NCBI GenBank assembly: GCA_964408935.1
Contig: CAYPBF010000003.1
Coordinates: 1-55,006, forward strand
Length of the DNA stretch: 55,006 nt
Reading direction: 5' to 3'
Origin: an uncultured Dehalococcoidales bacterium
GTDB taxonomy: Bacteria > Chloroflexota > Dehalococcoidia > Dehalococcoidales > BS750m-G39
The notes beneath the pieces are model-generated. The model was not told the DNA's origin and did no database searches. It saw nothing but the letters and a program-made list of their open reading frames with translations. Position 1 is the stretch's first letter. Every line of letters begins with the position of its first letter. Of this stretch, positions 27,632 through 34,589 are shown one piece after another. The translations under genes were made by a program, and so were the position numbers.

Positions 27632-28327
27632 GTGGCCGAGACGGTGATAGCGAAAGCCAGAGGCGAAGGCAGGACGGTGCTGACCGAGGTCGAGTCCAAA
27701 CAACTGCTCGGCCAGGCGGGCATCGACGTGGTTGAGACTAGACTGGCCACTTCCAAGGAAGAAGCTGTTTCCATAAGCGAGGAGCTTGGTTTCCCCGCAG
27801 TACTCAAGATAGCCTCGCCCGATATTATTCACAAGAGTGACGCGGGCGGGGTCAAACTGGGGCTGGAAAGCGCCCGGGCGGTGGGGCAGGCCTACGACGA
27901 TATCATAGCCGCCGCCAAGCAAAAATATCCCAAGGCCAGGATTCTGGGGGTGGCCGTGCAAAAGATGGCGCGCCCTGGCGTCGAGGTTATTATCGGAATG
28001 TCCCAGGACGAACAGTTCGGGCCCGTCCTCATGTTCGGGCTGGGGGGCATACTGGTGGAGGTGCTCAAAGACGTCTCCTTCCGCCTCGTTCCCTTAACCA
28101 AGCGGGACGCCGCTGAGATGGTCAGGGAGATAAAGGGCTACCCCCTACTTGAAGGCTATCGGGGAGGGGAAGTGGTGAAGATAGCCTACCTGGAGAATTT
28201 GCTGCTCAAGGTGTCTGATTTTGTCGAGAAAAATCCTGAGGTCAAAGAGCTTGACCTCAACCCTATTTTTGCCTACAGCGATGGTGCTTTAGCCGTAGAC
28301 GCCAGGGTAATACTGGACTCAAAATGA
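27632..28327 (+). CDS. Acetate/acyl-CoA ligase (ADP-forming) beta subunit (ATP-grasp)
   Basis: LTEVESKQLL, VLKIASPDIIHKSDAGGV, FGPVLMFGLGG.LVEVLKD, ELDLNP; GTG start with SD GGAGGAGG. Confidence 0.92.
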   Translation: MAETVIAKARGEGRTVLTEVESKQLLGQAGIDVVETRLATSKEEAVSISEELGFPAVLKIASPDIIHKSDAGGVKLGLESARAVGQAYDDIIAAAKQKYPKARILGVAVQKMARPGVEVIIGMSQDEQFGPVLMFGLGGILVEVLKDVSFRLVPLTKRDAAEMVREIKGYPLLEGYRGGEVVKIAYLENLLLKVSDFVEKNPEVKELDLNPIFAYSDGALAVDARVILDSK

Positions 28328-29832
28328 ATCTGAAACAGATGTTGGAAGGGGCGGCCAAGCGCTACGCTGACAAGACGGCAGTAGCTATGGGCGAGCGTCG
28401 GCTGTCCTATGCCGAGCTGGACGAGGCCGCAAATCGGGTGGCCAACGCCCTGGTGGGGATGGGGATAACTCAGGGCGACCACGTCGCCCTGCTGCTGGCC
28501 AACAGCCCCGAATTCGTCGCCGTCTATTTCGGGGTGGTCAAAATCGGGGCCATTGCCGTCCTGCTCGACCCCAAGTATAAGCTCACCGAGCTGGTCTCCT
28601 TGTGTGACGACTCCAGGCCCAGGGTCCTGATAACGGAAAGCCCCTGCCTGGAAGAGCTGATGCCTGTTATGGACAAATTCAAGTCCGTGGAACACGTTAT
28701 CGGCCTGACCCCACGCTCGCGAAGAAAAATCGTCACCTACAAAAAGATTATGGAGGAAAGCCCCGCCTCACCAGTCAACATAGAGCCGGCGCCCGAGGCT
28801 ATCGCCCATATCGCCTATAGCTCGGGGCCTTCCTTTAACCCGCGGGGGGTAGTGCTGTCCCACGGGACACTGGTTGAGGAGGCGGATATATCGGGTGACA
28901 GCTTCGAACAAACGGATAGAGACGTCGTTATTCTCTTCGCCCTGCCCATGCACCATGCCTTCGGGCTGGTGGTGGTCATGATGACGGCTATTGCCCAGGG
29001 CAGCACGGTGGTGATGCTTTCGGGGCTTTCCCTGGATAGCCTCTTCGAGCTTATTGAGCGGGAAAAGGCGACCATATTCATGGGGGTGCCTTTCGTTCAC
29101 GGGCTCATCGTGGAGTTCATCGAAGATGGCTGGCTGAAGCACGACCTGAGCTCGCTGCGCATCTGGGGCACGGCTGGGGCCGCCATGCCCCCCAGGATTG
29201 CCGAAAAGGTGAAAGAGCACGTCGGCCTGACCCCGGTCAACTTTTGGGGGATGACCGAATCAGCGGCACAGGTCAGCTGCACCACCCTCGACGGGCGGGG
29301 GGCAGCCAACTCGGTGGGTAGAACTCTGCGCGGCTGGGAGCTGAAGATAGTCGATGACGAGGGACGTGAGCTGCCCACAGGTGAGACGGGCGAGATAATA
29401 GTCAAAGGCCCCATTATGGACGAGTACTACAACAACCCTCAGGTGACAGCCCAGATAATCAAGGACGGCTGGCTCTATACCGGTGATATGGGCTGGCGGG
29501 ACGATTCAGGCTGGCTCTTTTTGGCCGCGGGCCGTAAGAAGGACATGATTATCAGTAAGGGGCAGAATATCTCCCCCAGCGATGTCGAAGAGATAATCAG
29601 CCGTCACCCTAAGGTGGATGAGGTGGCGGTGTTGGGTATCGCTGACGAGTCGAGGGGAGAGACGCCGCGGGCGTTCGTAAAGTTAAAGACGGGCAAAAAG
29701 ACGAGCGAACGGGTGATAAAGCGTTTTTGCCTGAAGCACCTGGCCAACTACAAAGTGCCGCGGGAGGTTGTCTTTATCAAGTCCCTGCCCAGAACCGCCA
29801 ACGGCAAAATCGATAAGGAAAAGTTGAGATGA
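28324..29832 (+). CDS. AMP-dependent acyl-CoA/acyl-ACP ligase-family protein with deviant P-loop
   Basis: LPMHHAFG, WGMTE, GWLYTGD, GRKKDMIISKGQNI, PRTANGKIDK. Confidence 0.85.
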   Translation: MNLKQMLEGAAKRYADKTAVAMGERRLSYAELDEAANRVANALVGMGITQGDHVALLLANSPEFVAVYFGVVKIGAIAVLLDPKYKLTELVSLCDDSRPRVLITESPCLEELMPVMDKFKSVEHVIGLTPRSRRKIVTYKKIMEESPASPVNIEPAPEAIAHIAYSSGPSFNPRGVVLSHGTLVEEADISGDSFEQTDRDVVILFALPMHHAFGLVVVMMTAIAQGSTVVMLSGLSLDSLFELIEREKATIFMGVPFVHGLIVEFIEDGWLKHDLSSLRIWGTAGAAMPPRIAEKVKEHVGLTPVNFWGMTESAAQVSCTTLDGRGAANSVGRTLRGWELKIVDDEGRELPTGETGEIIVKGPIMDEYYNNPQVTAQIIKDGWLYTGDMGWRDDSGWLFLAAGRKKDMIISKGQNISPSDVEEIISRHPKVDEVAVLGIADESRGETPRAFVKLKTGKKTSERVIKRFCLKHLANYKVPREVVFIKSLPRTANGKIDKEKLR

Positions 29833-31070
29833 AACGAAGAGTAGTCATTACCGGAATGGGCCTGCTCACGCCGCTGGGGGTGGGGACAGAGGCGAACTGG
29901 CAGGCGCTTTGCCAGGGGAAATCGGGGGTGGGGCCAGTGACCCATTTCGACGCGGGCGAGTTCCGCACCCAGATTGCTGGTGAGGTAAAGGACTTTGACC
30001 CCCTCGACTTTGTCGACCGCAAGCTGGCCAGGCGTGGCGATCGCTTTATCCACTTCGCCCTGGCGGCGGCGCGGATGGCGCTGGAAGACGCCAAACTTAA
30101 GATTGACGCCTCTAACGACGAGCGGGTGGGGGTTTCGGTGGGTACGGCCATGGGCGGTATCGAGAGCATCGAGAAAAATCATGAGCTTTTGATAAAGGGA
30201 AAGCGGCAGCAGATTTCCCCCTTCTTTGTTCCCAGCTTCCTGGGTAACATGGCTACGGGGCAGGTTGCCATCAGCTTTGGGGCCAAGGGGGCCAATATGT
30301 GTACGGTGACCGCCTGTGCCTCGGGGACGCACGCCATCGGCGACGCCGCCGTTGTTATCCAGCGTGGCGATGTCGACGCCATGATTGCCGGCGGTACCGA
30401 GGCCGCCATCAGGCCGCTGGTCTTTGCCGGACTGGACCCCTTAAAGGTAATGTCGGCCCGCAACGATGCCCCCGAAAGAGCCAGCCGCCCCTTCGATAAA
30501 GAGCGCGACGGCTTTATCATCGGCGAGGGGGCAGGCATGGTCATTTTGGATGAGCTGGAATCGGCCCAAAGGCGGGGGGCCAAGATTTACGGCGAGGTTT
30601 TGGGCTACGGCCTTAACAGCGACGCCTATCACATCACCGCCCCCGACCCCGAGGGCCTGGGCGCCGCCGCCTGCATGAGGCTGGCTTTAGAAGATGCCGG
30701 CATTTCCCCCGACCAGGTGGACTATATAAACGCCCACGGCACCTCGACGACGCTCAACGACCTCTCCGAGACCAGGGCCATCAAGGACGTCTTCGGCGAG
30801 CTGAGCCGTAAGATACCGGTCAGCGCCAACAAATCGATGATGGGGCACATGTGGGCAGGGGCGGGGGTGGCCGAGGCCATCGCCAGCCTGCTCACCATCC
30901 GCGACGGCATTATTCCGCCCACCATCAACTACGAGACGCCCGACCCCGATTGCGACCTCGACTACGTACCCAATGAAGCCCGGAAGGCTAAAGTAAACAT
31001 CGCCCTCTCCAACTCCTTCGGCTTCGGCAGCACCAACGGCTGCCTCATCTTAGGGAAATTTTCCCCTTAA
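29829..31070 (+). CDS. fabF: Beta-ketoacyl-ACP synthase II
   Basis: RRVVITGMG, TACASG, YINAHGTST, KSMMGH, SNSFGFG. Confidence 0.94.
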   Translation: MKRRVVITGMGLLTPLGVGTEANWQALCQGKSGVGPVTHFDAGEFRTQIAGEVKDFDPLDFVDRKLARRGDRFIHFALAAARMALEDAKLKIDASNDERVGVSVGTAMGGIESIEKNHELLIKGKRQQISPFFVPSFLGNMATGQVAISFGAKGANMCTVTACASGTHAIGDAAVVIQRGDVDAMIAGGTEAAIRPLVFAGLDPLKVMSARNDAPERASRPFDKERDGFIIGEGAGMVILDELESAQRRGAKIYGEVLGYGLNSDAYHITAPDPEGLGAAACMRLALEDAGISPDQVDYINAHGTSTTLNDLSETRAIKDVFGELSRKIPVSANKSMMGHMWAGAGVAEAIASLLTIRDGIIPPTINYETPDPDCDLDYVPNEARKAKVNIALSNSFGFGSTNGCLILGKFSP

Positions 31071-31097: not shown

Positions 31098-31126
31098 TTG
31101 TCAAAAAGGGTGAGGTATGCTATATT
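31098..31126 (+). promoter_or_regulatory. Sigma-70 promoter of the small membrane-protein gene
   Basis: TTGTCA-17-TATATT with extended TG. Confidence 0.7.
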
Positions 31127-31130
31127 CTAT

Positions 31131-31151
31131 ATACCTAGAATTACTATGTAT
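31131..31151. promoter_or_regulatory. Candidate PadR operator 1
   Basis: ATACCTAG-N5-CTATGTAT dyad starting 5 nt after the -10 box; homologous to operator 2. Confidence 0.65.
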
Positions 31152-31229
31152 TTAGAATAACCAGCTATCTCTTGTTGTCAAGGCAGCAGTCTCGATATGA
31201 ATCAAAGGAAAGGAGGTGAGCGCTAGATA

Positions 31230-31373
31230 ATGAAACTTCTAAGTCTAGCTATCTGTTCCCTGGGTATTTGGGTTTTCCTGGGTCCGTTGGTTTCGGCCGA
31301 TTGGGTCGCCTACGTCTTCGGTGGCTTAGCCGCCGTACTGGCTTTCTTAGCTGCATTTATGACGAAATCATAG
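31230..31373 (+). CDS. Small 47-aa two-helix membrane protein (SPW-repeat-like), absent from ORF track
   Basis: MKLLSLAICSLGIWVFLGPLVSADWVAYVFGGLAAVLAFLAAFMTKS; strong SD AAGGAGGTGA; own promoter. Confidence 0.8.
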   Translation: MKLLSLAICSLGIWVFLGPLVSADWVAYVFGGLAAVLAFLAAFMTKS

Positions 31374-31482
31374 CCAGGCTGGCTACTATTTATTCCCTCA
31401 TAGAGTCTAGTCAAACTCACCGAAAACTACGGGACTGCTGCCTTGACTGGCTCGACCTTTAAGCTCTCTCTTCTAGAACGTG

Positions 31483-31511
31483 TTGCAAAGCGGAGTACTG
31501 TGTATTATTAT
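31483..31511 (+). promoter_or_regulatory. Sigma-70 promoter of padR
   Basis: TTGCAA-17-TATTAT. Confidence 0.65.
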
Positions 31512-31515
31512 ATTG

Positions 31516-31536
31516 ATGCATAGGGTTACTAGGTGT
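31516..31536. promoter_or_regulatory. Candidate PadR operator 2
   Basis: ATGCATAG-N5-CTAGGTGT dyad starting 5 nt after the -10 box. Confidence 0.65.
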
Positions 31537-31556: not shown

Positions 31557-31892
31557 ATGGCACAGAGACGTGAACTCATCAAGGGCAGTTTCGATTCCCT
31601 AATTCTTTGTCTTCTCGACCAGCAGTCGATGTACGGCTACCAGATTATCAAGGAGCTGGAGAAGCGTAGCCAAGGCTATTTCCGCTTTAAAGAAGGCACC
31701 CTCTATCCGGCCCTGCACCGCCTGGAGCAATCGGGCCTAATCGAGGGCAAGTGGCAGATGTTGCCTAACGGGCGGCAGCGAAGATACTATCACATCACGG
31801 AAAAGGGGCTTCACGGTCTGGAAACCAAGCGGAGCCAGTGGCTGGATTTCTTGGCAGCGATGAACCTGATTATTCGCCCTCAGTCTGACTGA
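31557..31892 (+). CDS. PadR-family transcriptional regulator
   Basis: MYGYQIIKEL, KEGTLYPALHRLE..GLI, RRYYHITEKG. Confidence 0.95.
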   Translation: MAQRRELIKGSFDSLILCLLDQQSMYGYQIIKELEKRSQGYFRFKEGTLYPALHRLEQSGLIEGKWQMLPNGRQRRYYHITEKGLHGLETKRSQWLDFLAAMNLIIRPQSD

Positions 31893-32859: not shown

Positions 32860-33717
32860 ATGTCTGGAGTCAGAGTGGTTGCCGATAGCGCGGTCTGTTT
32901 GCCCAAAGAGCTTATAGAGAAGTACAACATCGAGCTGGTGCCGGAGACTATCATCTTTGGTACCACCGTCTATCGTGACGGCGTCGACCTAGTGCCCAGT
33001 GAATTCTACGTCAAGTTGGGGGAGGCCAAGGAGCTGCCGACGACATCGGCTCCCTCCCCTCAGGACTTTATTGATGTCTTCCAGAAGGTGGGTAAAGACG
33101 CCGATTCTATTGCCTGCATCTTGGTAACTGCGGGGTTCAGCCATATGGGTTTGCAGGCGGCTATGACCGCTCGTGAGAGCGTTCCCGAGCCGCCGATAGA
33201 GATTATGGACTCACGGACGGCGTTGGGTGCTTATGGCTTCGTCGTCCTGGCGGCAGCCAAGGCGGCCGCAGCGGGTAAGCCACTGCCCGAGGTTATCCAA
33301 GCCGCCCAAGACGTGCAGAAGCGGGTTACGATGATAGCTACCTTGAATACGATTAAGTATCTGGCCAAAGGAGGGCGCATCGGTAAGGCCGCCCACTGGG
33401 CTGGCACTCTGCTCAGCATTAAGCCCATCATAGAAGTACCTCCTTCCACCGGGGTTTTAGAACCGATAGAGAGGGTCAGAACCAGACGAAAGGCACTGCA
33501 GCGATTGCTAGAGATTATGCAGGAGAGGGTCGGCCAAGGACAGCGGGTACACGCTAGTATAGAACAGGCTAATGTGACCGAAGAAGCACAATGGCTTGAG
33601 TCTCAGCTAATATCGCTTTTTGATTGTGCCGAAATTTATATAAATGATTTCGCCCCCGTGGCTGGAGTCCACTGTGGACCGGGGGTAATTGGGATTTCCT
33701 TTTATACCGGGGACTGA
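32860..33717 (+). CDS. DegV-family fatty-acid-binding protein
   Basis: VVADSA, PTTSAPSP, IMDSRT, YLAKGGRI, HCGPG.IG. Confidence 0.92.
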   Translation: MSGVRVVADSAVCLPKELIEKYNIELVPETIIFGTTVYRDGVDLVPSEFYVKLGEAKELPTTSAPSPQDFIDVFQKVGKDADSIACILVTAGFSHMGLQAAMTARESVPEPPIEIMDSRTALGAYGFVVLAAAKAAAAGKPLPEVIQAAQDVQKRVTMIATLNTIKYLAKGGRIGKAAHWAGTLLSIKPIIEVPPSTGVLEPIERVRTRRKALQRLLEIMQERVGQGQRVHASIEQANVTEEAQWLESQLISLFDCAEIYINDFAPVAGVHCGPGVIGISFYTGD

Positions 33718-33731
33718 GGAGTCATTTCTTT

Positions 33732-34589
33732 ATGGCGCCAAAGGTAGCCGTCATTACCGACAGCATAGCCTGCCTCACTAAGGAGCTGGTGGAGCAGTAC
33801 GGCATCAGGATTGCTCCCATTAACCTCTATTTCGAGGATAGGACCTACCGTGACTGGGTGGATATAACCCCTGACGAAGCCTACAAGCTCTTTCTGAAAG
33901 ACCCTGATGCCTTTAAGACCTCGGGGATCAATCCCTCGGAGTGGATAGAGGCCTGCCGTGAGGCCAGCCGGGAGACCGACAGCATCATCTGTATCACCCT
34001 TTCCTCCAAACTGAGCATGGTCTATGACAGCGTTCTGGGGGCAAAAAAGCGCCTTGAAAAAGAGATTCCCGGGCTTTCCGTAGCGGTGATGGACTCCGAG
34101 ACAGTCACGGCCACCGAGGGCTTTGTCGCCCTGGCGGCGGCTCGGGCGGCGGAGGAGGGCAAGTCGTTGTCCGAGGTGGTTGAAGCTGCCGAGACGGTGA
34201 AGAAAAAGGTGGCTATGGTGGCCTTCCTGGATACCATACGCCATGTTTACCGCACCGGACGCATACCCAAGATAGCGGCTTTGGCCGGCTCAATACTTAG
34301 CATCAGGCCGATGCTCACCGTCACCGATGGGGTGGTCAAATTCATGGGCGTGGTGCGGAGCCGCGAGCGGGGCATAAAGAAGATGCTGAAGAAGATGAGG
34401 GAGAAGGTGGGCAAAAACCCGGTGCACGTGGCGGTGATGCACGCCTTCGCCCAGGAAGAGGGCGAGAAGCTGAAGGAACAGGTTGCCGCCGAGTTCAACT
34501 GCGTTGAGCTTTGGCTTACCGGTTTCAGCCCGGTGATGGGCTACGCCACCGGCACGGGCACGCTGGGGCTGGCTTTCTATGAAGATTAG
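33732..34589 (+). CDS. DegV-family fatty-acid-binding protein
   Basis: VITDS, SSKLS, VMDSET, GRI, SIRPML, G.GTLGLAF. Confidence 0.92.
   Translation: MAPKVAVITDSIACLTKELVEQYGIRIAPINLYFEDRTYRDWVDITPDEAYKLFLKDPDAFKTSGINPSEWIEACREASRETDSIICITLSSKLSMVYDSVLGAKKRLEKEIPGLSVAVMDSETVTATEGFVALAAARAAEEGKSLSEVVEAAETVKKKVAMVAFLDTIRHVYRTGRIPKIAALAGSILSIRPMLTVTDGVVKFMGVVRSRERGIKKMLKKMREKVGKNPVHVAVMHAFAQEEGEKLKEQVAAEFNCVELWLTGFSPVMGYATGTGTLGLAFYED

Follow-up and report, generated by a model that had tools for sequence, protein, structure and literature searches.

A candidate PadR operator shared by a microprotein gene, the padR-HAAS-degV locus and plsY genes in uncultured Dehalococcoidales

We analysed a 55,006-nt stretch of DNA from an uncultured Dehalococcoidales bacterium (contig CAYPBF010000003.1 of assembly GCA_964408935.1; hereafter the window), in which a gene for a small membrane protein precedes padR and the gene of a HAAS-domain membrane protein. 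Two promoters of this locus carry the same 21-bp dyad, and we conclude that this dyad is probably the operator of the PadR protein encoded at 31557-31892, a member of subfamily 2 (PadR-s2), which would repress through it. The window is contig C3 of a genome of 1.39 Mb, 97% complete and with 56% GC, whose public relatives are uncultured Dehalococcoidales metagenome-assembled genomes (MAGs) throughout. A first-pass annotation had proposed that the PadR-HAAS pair regulates itself and co-represses the microprotein through the two sites. This interpretation is supported by the sequence comparisons below, and widened by them. The elements concerned are the following, in window coordinates:

31098-31126, + strand: promoter P1, TTGTCA-17-TATATT; consensus scan, 10/12 matches, TG before the -10 box
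31131-31151: operator 1, ATACCTAG-AATTA-CTATGTAT, covering the inferred +1 of P1
31230-31373, + strand: microprotein gene, 47 amino acids (aa), hydrophobic, two membrane helices by eye
31483-31511, + strand: promoter P2, TTGCAA-17-TATTAT; consensus scan, 9/12 matches, conserved in orthologues
31516-31536: operator 2, ATGCATAG-GGTTA-CTAGGTGT, covering the inferred +1 of P2 and starting 41 nt upstream of the padR ATG
31557-31892, + strand: padR, a 111-aa single-domain PadR (subfamily 2), PF03551
31905-32804, + strand: HAAS-domain multi-pass membrane protein, 299 aa, the presumed sensor partner

The 21-bp dyad and the protein that reads it

Direct reading and a consensus scan agree with the first-pass description of two promoters with 17-bp spacers lying exactly 385 bp apart. 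The hexamers of P1 are at 31098-31103 (-35, TTGTCA) and 31121-31126 (-10, TATATT), those of P2 at 31483-31488 (-35, TTGCAA) and 31506-31511 (-10, TATTAT), and P1 is kept across the genus as TTGCCA-17-TATATT. With +1 positions placed by promoter consensus only, both start sites fall inside a dyad, which begins in both units at the fifth nucleotide after the -10 box, leaving 4 nt in between. The reverse complement of operator 1 is ATACATAG-TAATT-CTAGGTAT, and the identity between sites is indeed 7/8 in each arm, as had been stated; self-complementarity is 7/8 for site 1 and only 5/8 for site 2. The identical geometry that had been claimed for the two units holds for this pair, but not as a rule: the gap between -10 box and dyad is 0-4 nt in orthologous promoters, and 0-10 nt at the other targets in this genome. 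Both sites are exact matches to the dyad form scanned, ATRCMTAG-N5-CTAKGTRT, for which 100 shuffles give a chance expectation of 0.04 per window at up to two mismatches; 0/100 shuffles equalled the number of matches observed in the window.

In this genome the palindrome of site 1 stretches to 16-nt arms, TATTCTATATACCTAG / CTATGTATTTAGAATA (31123-31159), and the site on contig C13 (see below) has AGAAT/ATTCT flanks similar to this extension. The longer arms were ruled out as a functional element because they are not conserved in relatives, which leaves the 21-bp core as the part taken to function. We also rejected DNA looping or helical phasing of the two operators, for which no constant phase was found; they stand 88-129 bp apart where relatives lack the microprotein gene and 380-415 bp apart where they have it.

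Orthologues of padR are clear in about 32-34 of 41 related genomes and are 90-94% identical within the genus. In each of the 13 genomes that make up the genus, the sequence ATRCATAG-N5-CTAGGTRT stands 39-43 nt (around 41) before the padR ATG, as it does in most other genera of the family; over genus and family together the range is 39-47 nt. At 80 species-level loci from across the Dehalococcoidales, taken from the public genome collection, we found an exact match upstream of padR in 33 cases, one with a single mismatch in 17 and one with two in 8, nearly all of them at -33 to -52. The first-pass annotation had staked its proposal on the motif being present upstream of orthologous padR genes, and there it is, with two mismatches or fewer, at 58 of the 80 loci. 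What is conserved are the half-sites (operator consensus ATACMTAG-N5-CTAKGTAT), while the 5-nt spacer is free: 67 exact sites hold 61 different spacers, which are 76% A+T against a genome of 56% GC. Conserved half-sites around a free spacer are the footprint that one would expect of a dimeric DNA-binding protein, and a PadR dimer may bind here with one half-site per monomer.

The term mini-regulon, used at first for the two promoters of the window, turned out to be too narrow. A genome-wide scan with a position weight matrix (PWM) gives six strong operators that are conserved in relatives, the twin units and four further sites of equal quality:

C1:13909: site before a gene for PlsY (acyl-phosphate:glycerol-3-phosphate acyltransferase)
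C59:3514: site before a second PlsY gene
C13:11269: site before a lipoprotein gene adjoining lgt
C2:22964: site before a gene for a DUF3068/PorA-family membrane protein

With this matrix the six reach 21.6-38.2 bits, with operator 1 at the top of the genome (38.2 bits) and operator 2 at 28.5 bits; the next score is 16, and a reversed control PWM yields none above 12. The weak sites on C46 (before degV), on C34 and at C1:30782, all below or near 16 bits, were excluded from the regulon. Each of the six lies 0-10 nt past the -10 box of a good sigma-70-type promoter (for instance TTGACA-16-TAGAAT at the lipoprotein gene, or TTGCAA-17-TATAAT), and all are found between -10 and about +25. Since every strong site covers the transcription start in this way, binding would block RNA polymerase and repress. 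In the set of 41 genomes, most members of the genus and family have 1-6 matches to the pattern each, compared to 0-1 for a backwards control. Among 38 sites of relatives that are not beside padR, 37 lie directly upstream of orthologues of plsY(C1), plsY(C59), the C13 lipoprotein gene, the C2 PgfA/PorA-like gene or degV, and in other families of the order the operator stands before plsY, degV and padR.

The PadR protein matches PF03551 at 94.4 bits (cut-off 27) over residues 19-89. At 111 aa it aligns near end to end with the structures 5DYM (117 aa) and 4ESB (115 aa), in keeping with the make-up of PadR-s2, a protein of about 110 aa in which a winged helix-turn-helix is joined to one C-terminal helix and to no second domain. 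Of solved structures, 5DYM is the nearest relative (E = 5.8e-18; residues 4-104 aligned), and we take it to be CD630_1154, the strain-630 homologue of cdPadR1. The outer triplets of the dyad, TAC-N13-GTA (positions 2-4 and 18-20 of the 21-bp site), equal the geometry of the cdPadR1 operator. The motif occurs in 30 of 32 genomes with a PadR orthologue and is absent from six of nine without one (Fisher p = 4.5e-4), and the site is tied most constantly to the padR promoter itself. From these observations we infer PadR as the binder. The recognition helix, KEGTLYPALHRLE, hardly varies among all 80 orthologues, even where a canonical site is lacking, which leaves a test of co-evolution between helix and motif powerless.

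Several findings weigh against this assignment. Three genomes without a detected PadR orthologue (G030, G037 and G027) hold motif matches that are exact or have one mismatch. G030 and G037 are incomplete; the complete G027 has two identical near-motif sequences with a core mismatch, 7.3 kb apart (C1:117792 and 125099; loci L164/L173), which look like a spurious match in a duplicated segment. About a quarter of the more distant padR orthologues have no recognisable upstream site, their recognition helix being unchanged, so autoregulation may not be universal, or the sites may have degenerated there. The operator is present on only 2/7 plsY and 2-3/9 degV paralogues, and hence this would not be a global lipid regulon. 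The presumed partner in the window scores 24.2 bits with Pfam HAAS and does not reach the cut-off of 27. Finally, the organism is an uncultured MAG, and binding of the operator by PadR is a prediction from sequence.

Could the dyad be a real operator that is bound by another factor, be it a PadR paralogue or an unrelated regulator, with the padR operon as one target among others? The genome has at least three further PadR-like genes, and the distant padR orthologues without a site would fit such a scheme. We nonetheless consider it unlikely, given the site at the padR promoter in 58 of 80 species, the co-occurrence of motif and orthologue and a geometry that is that of the PadR-s2 operator of cdPadR1. 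No other regulator gene recurs beside the sites in the loci of relatives. A PadR paralogue on C5 (45% identical), followed directly by two degV genes (C5:39061-41247, minus strand), bears a different dyad in its own promoter, GTAGTA-A-TACTAC. This speaks against the paralogue as the reader of our dyad, and suggests a parallel PadR-degV module with its own operator.

It is quite improbable, in our view, that PadR binds the dyad as an activator or dual regulator, or that HAAS serves as a co-activator, in place of simple repression. The weaker degV site on C46 does abut the -35 box, an activator-like position, and a positively acting PadR, PrhP, is reported from Ralstonia solanacearum. In contrast, the placement of all six strong sites is that of a repressor, and characterised PadRs encoded together with DUF1700/HAAS membrane partners are autorepressors (PMC6624303).

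We give little credit to the idea that the dyads act as 5'-terminal hairpins of messenger RNA, affecting stability or translation, and not as DNA operators. The dyads would indeed make up about the first 20 nt of these transcripts, and the locus does contain a real conserved RNA structure, a long-range stem that is described below. Yet the sequence of the arms is conserved across unrelated genes, while a hairpin needs complementarity only; the variable arm position does not covary, 41 of the 67 exact sites having A/G or C/T, that is mismatches, at positions 5/17; and several promoters have the left arm overlapping or touching the -10 box, where it would not be transcribed. That the twin units merely stem from a local promoter duplication or resemble each other by chance, without shared regulation, is barely credible: they lie close together in a common layout, but the P1 and P2 regions of the window align nowhere outside the hexamers and dyad arms, and the same dyad stands at promoters on four other contigs and is conserved across an order.

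Under repression by PadR, the operator on P1 would silence the gene of the 47-aa membrane microprotein, and that on P2, which would drive padR, the HAAS gene, both degV genes and probably a hydrolase gene, would bring about autoregulation. Two of the seven plsY genes, the PgfA/PorA-like (DUF3068) gene and the lipoprotein gene would be the other targets.

Regulon content and the membrane partner

Around the genes already listed, the window contains:

28324-31070: acyl-CoA-ligase/fabF pair, upstream of the 47-aa open reading frame (ORF)
32860-34589, + strand: two tandem degV genes (FakB-like, fatty-acid-binding), PF02645 and TIGR00762
34605-35495, + strand: alpha/beta hydrolase gene, which follows degV in several relatives too

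From the 47-aa ORF through padR, the HAAS gene and the two degV genes to the hydrolase gene, all lie on one strand (+), 3' of the ligase/fabF pair. The tandem degV genes are probably co-transcribed with padR-HAAS, and the hydrolase gene is possibly the last of the padR operon. The order padR-HAAS-degV is kept in nearly all of the 80 loci, often with the ligase/fabF pair upstream, and the HAAS gene adjoins padR in essentially all of them wherever sequence is available.

The pairing of PadR with a HAAS protein, claimed in the first-pass annotation, is borne out: the adjacent protein matches NCBIfam perm_prefix_1 (NF038403) at 37.8 bits, above the cut-off of 30, and Pfam HAAS is matched in 20 of 21 orthologues. 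An AlphaFold2 (AF2) model (pLDDT 79) has an N-terminal helical domain, with helices at 3-15, 20-43, 48-59 and 62-73, plus about eight long helices. The invariant residues (P87, H88, W128, D181, W182, R239 and R243) are polar or aromatic and belong to the membrane part. For this part a Pfam search returned no family, and a PDB fold search with the AF2 model of the membrane domain returned no match below E = 1. On a contig of GCA_043818095.1 (L183), where a microprotein homologue is also present, padR leads straight into two degV genes without a HAAS gene being called in between, so that some lineages may do without the partner or encode it at another place.

A tblastn search found seven PlsY-family paralogues (C1, C59, C20, C90, C61, C82 and C33) and nine DegV paralogues (on C3, C5, C21 and C46), an unusually large number of acyl-phosphate acyltransferases and fatty-acid-binding proteins for 1.39 Mb. 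The DUF3068 protein has as its best NCBIfam match the mycobacterial lipid-trafficking protein PgfA, under the cut-off of that model, and Pfam matches of the C13 lipoprotein are NTF2-like and insignificant. Judged by these predicted targets, what unites the regulon is the binding of fatty acids and the initial acylation in phospholipid synthesis. A FakA-like Dak2-domain gene (545 aa) is followed by four tandem degV genes at C21:8913-13812, and PlsX is encoded at C19:6336-7298; with Dak2 and PlsX present, the route from FakA/FakB through acyl-phosphate to PlsY is complete. A fatty-acid kinase route is present in this genome, contrary to the impression given by the window alone.

Outside the family, we also noticed the operator before an SDR (FabG-like) gene in two different families and, elsewhere in the order, before a MaoC-like hot-dog gene and genes like those of 2-hydroxyacyl-CoA dehydratase and its activator (loci L171, L172, L179, L169 and L177 in all; genomes G030, G032 and G040); all these identities were read by eye from N-termini only. 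This hints that the content of the regulon may shift between lineages while remaining in acyl metabolism.

What the system might respond to is suggested by its targets. The HAAS protein would detect a cue from the membrane or from lipids and, in response, retain, release or reconfigure PadR, so that expression of DegV/FakB and PlsY would follow the state of the membrane; that HAAS reads such a cue is a conjecture drawn from regulon content only. Going further, we tentatively suggest that PadR-HAAS may be a membrane-lipid homeostasis switch of the Dehalococcoidales, with the microprotein feeding back on either the sensor or PlsY to modulate it, a proposal that we see as possible and not as the probable outcome. 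In such a switch the HAAS sensor would read bilayer or fatty-acid status and set the FakB(DegV)-PlsY module, the PgfA-like protein and the lipoprotein through one repressor. The functional theme of fatty-acid binding, PlsY acylation and envelope lipids offers a testable prediction of the sensor's cue, and knowing which plsY and degV paralogues switch together would be a first handle on why there are so many. Operator and repressor are small enough to be tested wholly in a laboratory host.

The microprotein gene and its RNA structure

The small gene under the first operator, as the first-pass annotation had it, is a real gene, and the operator comes right after the -10 box in 12 of the 12 species examined. 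Among them are one with the gene before degV in place of padR, and three distant metagenomic homologues. Counted by codon position, pairwise differences number 411/286/749, the third position dominating. Of 959 codons that differ, 436 are synonymous in the reading frame, compared with 107 and 91 in the shifted frames. Homologues fall into 37 clusters, all of 45-74 aa and mostly of 45-55 aa, and the few with a named source come from Dehalococcoidales or Chloroflexota; a Pfam search with the microprotein gave no match.

Within the genus, six genomes have the layout P1-operator-ORF-P2-operator-padR, seven have both units 101-129 bp apart without the ORF, and one has P2 only. In a neighbouring genus (g7), too, the ORF is missing and the two units stand 88-118 bp apart. 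Operator 1 is conserved across the genus whether or not the microprotein gene is there, and P1 with operator 1 is found in eight close relatives without it, where, by position, it is a predicted second, upstream promoter of padR. The cassette of promoter, operator right behind the -10 box and ORF, with an inverted arm on either side, is also seen before padR in another genus, before degV in another family, and in three distant metagenomic homologues before padR(-HAAS)-degV. A recent mobile insertion bounded by inverted repeats is ruled out by these occurrences in other genera and families, with arms that have diverged and covary. They mark the cassette as an old member of the locus that is often lost, repeated loss being likelier than insertion.

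The transcript of the cassette is predicted to fold back on itself through the following elements:

31177-31194, + strand: 5' arm of an 18-bp long-range RNA stem enclosing the microprotein ORF; inverted repeat, 94% complementary
31430-31447, + strand: 3' arm of the same stem
31212-31220, + strand: Shine-Dalgarno (SD) region of the microprotein gene, GGAGGUGAG, predicted to pair with the 3' untranslated region (UTR)
31404-31421, + strand: 3'-UTR stretch AGUCUAGU...CUCACC, the predicted pairing partner of the SD and start region

RNAalifold on nine species finds compensatory changes in the stem (one pair, for example, is A-U / G-U / G-C depending on the species), and the most distant homologue has entirely different arms that are still complementary. 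The stem is present in the centroid fold, with z = -3.2. In the same alignment GGUGAG and GCUAGAU pair with AUCUAGC...CUCACC, an interaction kept in 7/9 sequences. We regard the microprotein as a likely regulon member with extra post-transcriptional control, a predicted RNA lock.

A hairpin just after the stop codon (31371-31385) was seen by eye at the same position in several relatives, with a different sequence and no U-tract. Promoter-like matches on the minus strand (31181->31154 and 31414->31385) were considered as an antisense-RNA promoter and dropped, as they are not conserved in relatives.

Relation to known systems

hok and AapA1 are type I toxin mRNAs with long-distance pairing between 5' and 3' ends. 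The microprotein resembles them in its small hydrophobic product, its long-range 5'-3' stem and its predicted sequestered SD. In contrast to them, it is single copy, is syntenic before padR across divergent lineages and lies under a PadR operator; comparison of the window with relatives found no conserved promoter for an antisense-RNA antitoxin, which sets it apart from type I systems.

For the dyad, the nearest parallel is cdPadR1 (CDR20291_0991)/CD630_1154 of C. difficile, also a single-domain PadR of ~110 aa with a 21-bp site and two sites in its own promoter, implying autoregulation. The operator of cdPadR1, GTACTAT-N2-ATTATA-N-AGTA, was mapped by electrophoretic mobility shift assay as 21 bp with the form TACT-N11-AGTA; two copies lie in the promoter of cdPadR1 itself, and an AT-rich spacer is required (PMC5050560). 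The inner half-site of our dyad (CMTAG/CTAKG) is strongly conserved and different. The Dehalococcoidales system also differs in its HAAS membrane partner and in its targets, which are plsY, degV and envelope genes and not a stress or antibiotic network.

Ravi et al. 2024 proposed the HAAS-PadR dyad as a kinase-free alternative to two-component systems (PMC11237479), and Listeria monocytogenes has autorepressed operons with a PadR followed by a membrane partner, LltR-Lmo0600 (DUF1700) and LftR-LftS (PMC6624303, PMC4517056). The locus described here shares with these a stand-alone padR followed by a membrane protein with N-terminal helices of HAAS/DUF1700 type, and with them the proposed logic in which a membrane sensor controls the availability of a repressor. 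The transmembrane domain, by contrast, matched no Pfam family or PDB fold, and PspC, Toastrack and LiaF are absent from the gene context; phospholipid acylation and fatty-acid binding stand at the centre of the regulon, and an operator consensus is available, which most such dyads lack. TIGR03433, a family of acidobacterial PadR paralogues that go with NF038403 'permease prefix domain 1' proteins, comes close as well: our PadR scores 97.6 bits, just below the cut-off of 101.8. The partner's C-terminal membrane region differs from that system in that it matched no Pfam family.

A PadR-s2 autorepressor with a HAAS membrane partner is known; what is new is the operator consensus, its conservation over an order and the co-regulated microprotein with its predicted RNA lock. 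HAAS-linked PadRs are widespread and poorly understood, with few operators or regulons known and a signal for almost none. The present case offers a defined 21-bp operator and a conserved regulon over an order of uncultured, small-genome Chloroflexota. Its distinctive part is the lipid link: in our literature searches, a regulon centred on plsY, degV and envelope lipid proteins was found for no PadR, and Dehalococcoidia yielded no transcriptional regulator acting on phospholipid synthesis.

Palindromic operators are also used by the lipid-synthesis regulators FapR (Bacillus), FabT (streptococci), FadR/FabR (E. coli) and DesT. The outline is alike, with one repressor and a palindromic operator on lipid genes, pls included, as well as on its own operon. 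The likeness is functional only, as those families (DeoR-thioesterase, MarR, GntR, TetR) are unrelated and only a PadR domain was found here. Regulators of the FapR, FabT and FadR type themselves bind acyl-CoA, acyl-ACP or malonyl-CoA, in contrast to the separate membrane partner of PadR in our locus, where only a subset of the plsY and degV paralogues carries the operator. Should the lipid switch prove true, PadR-HAAS would represent a new regulatory class for phospholipid synthesis, comparable to FapR, FabT or DesK-DesR, and two-component-like without a kinase.

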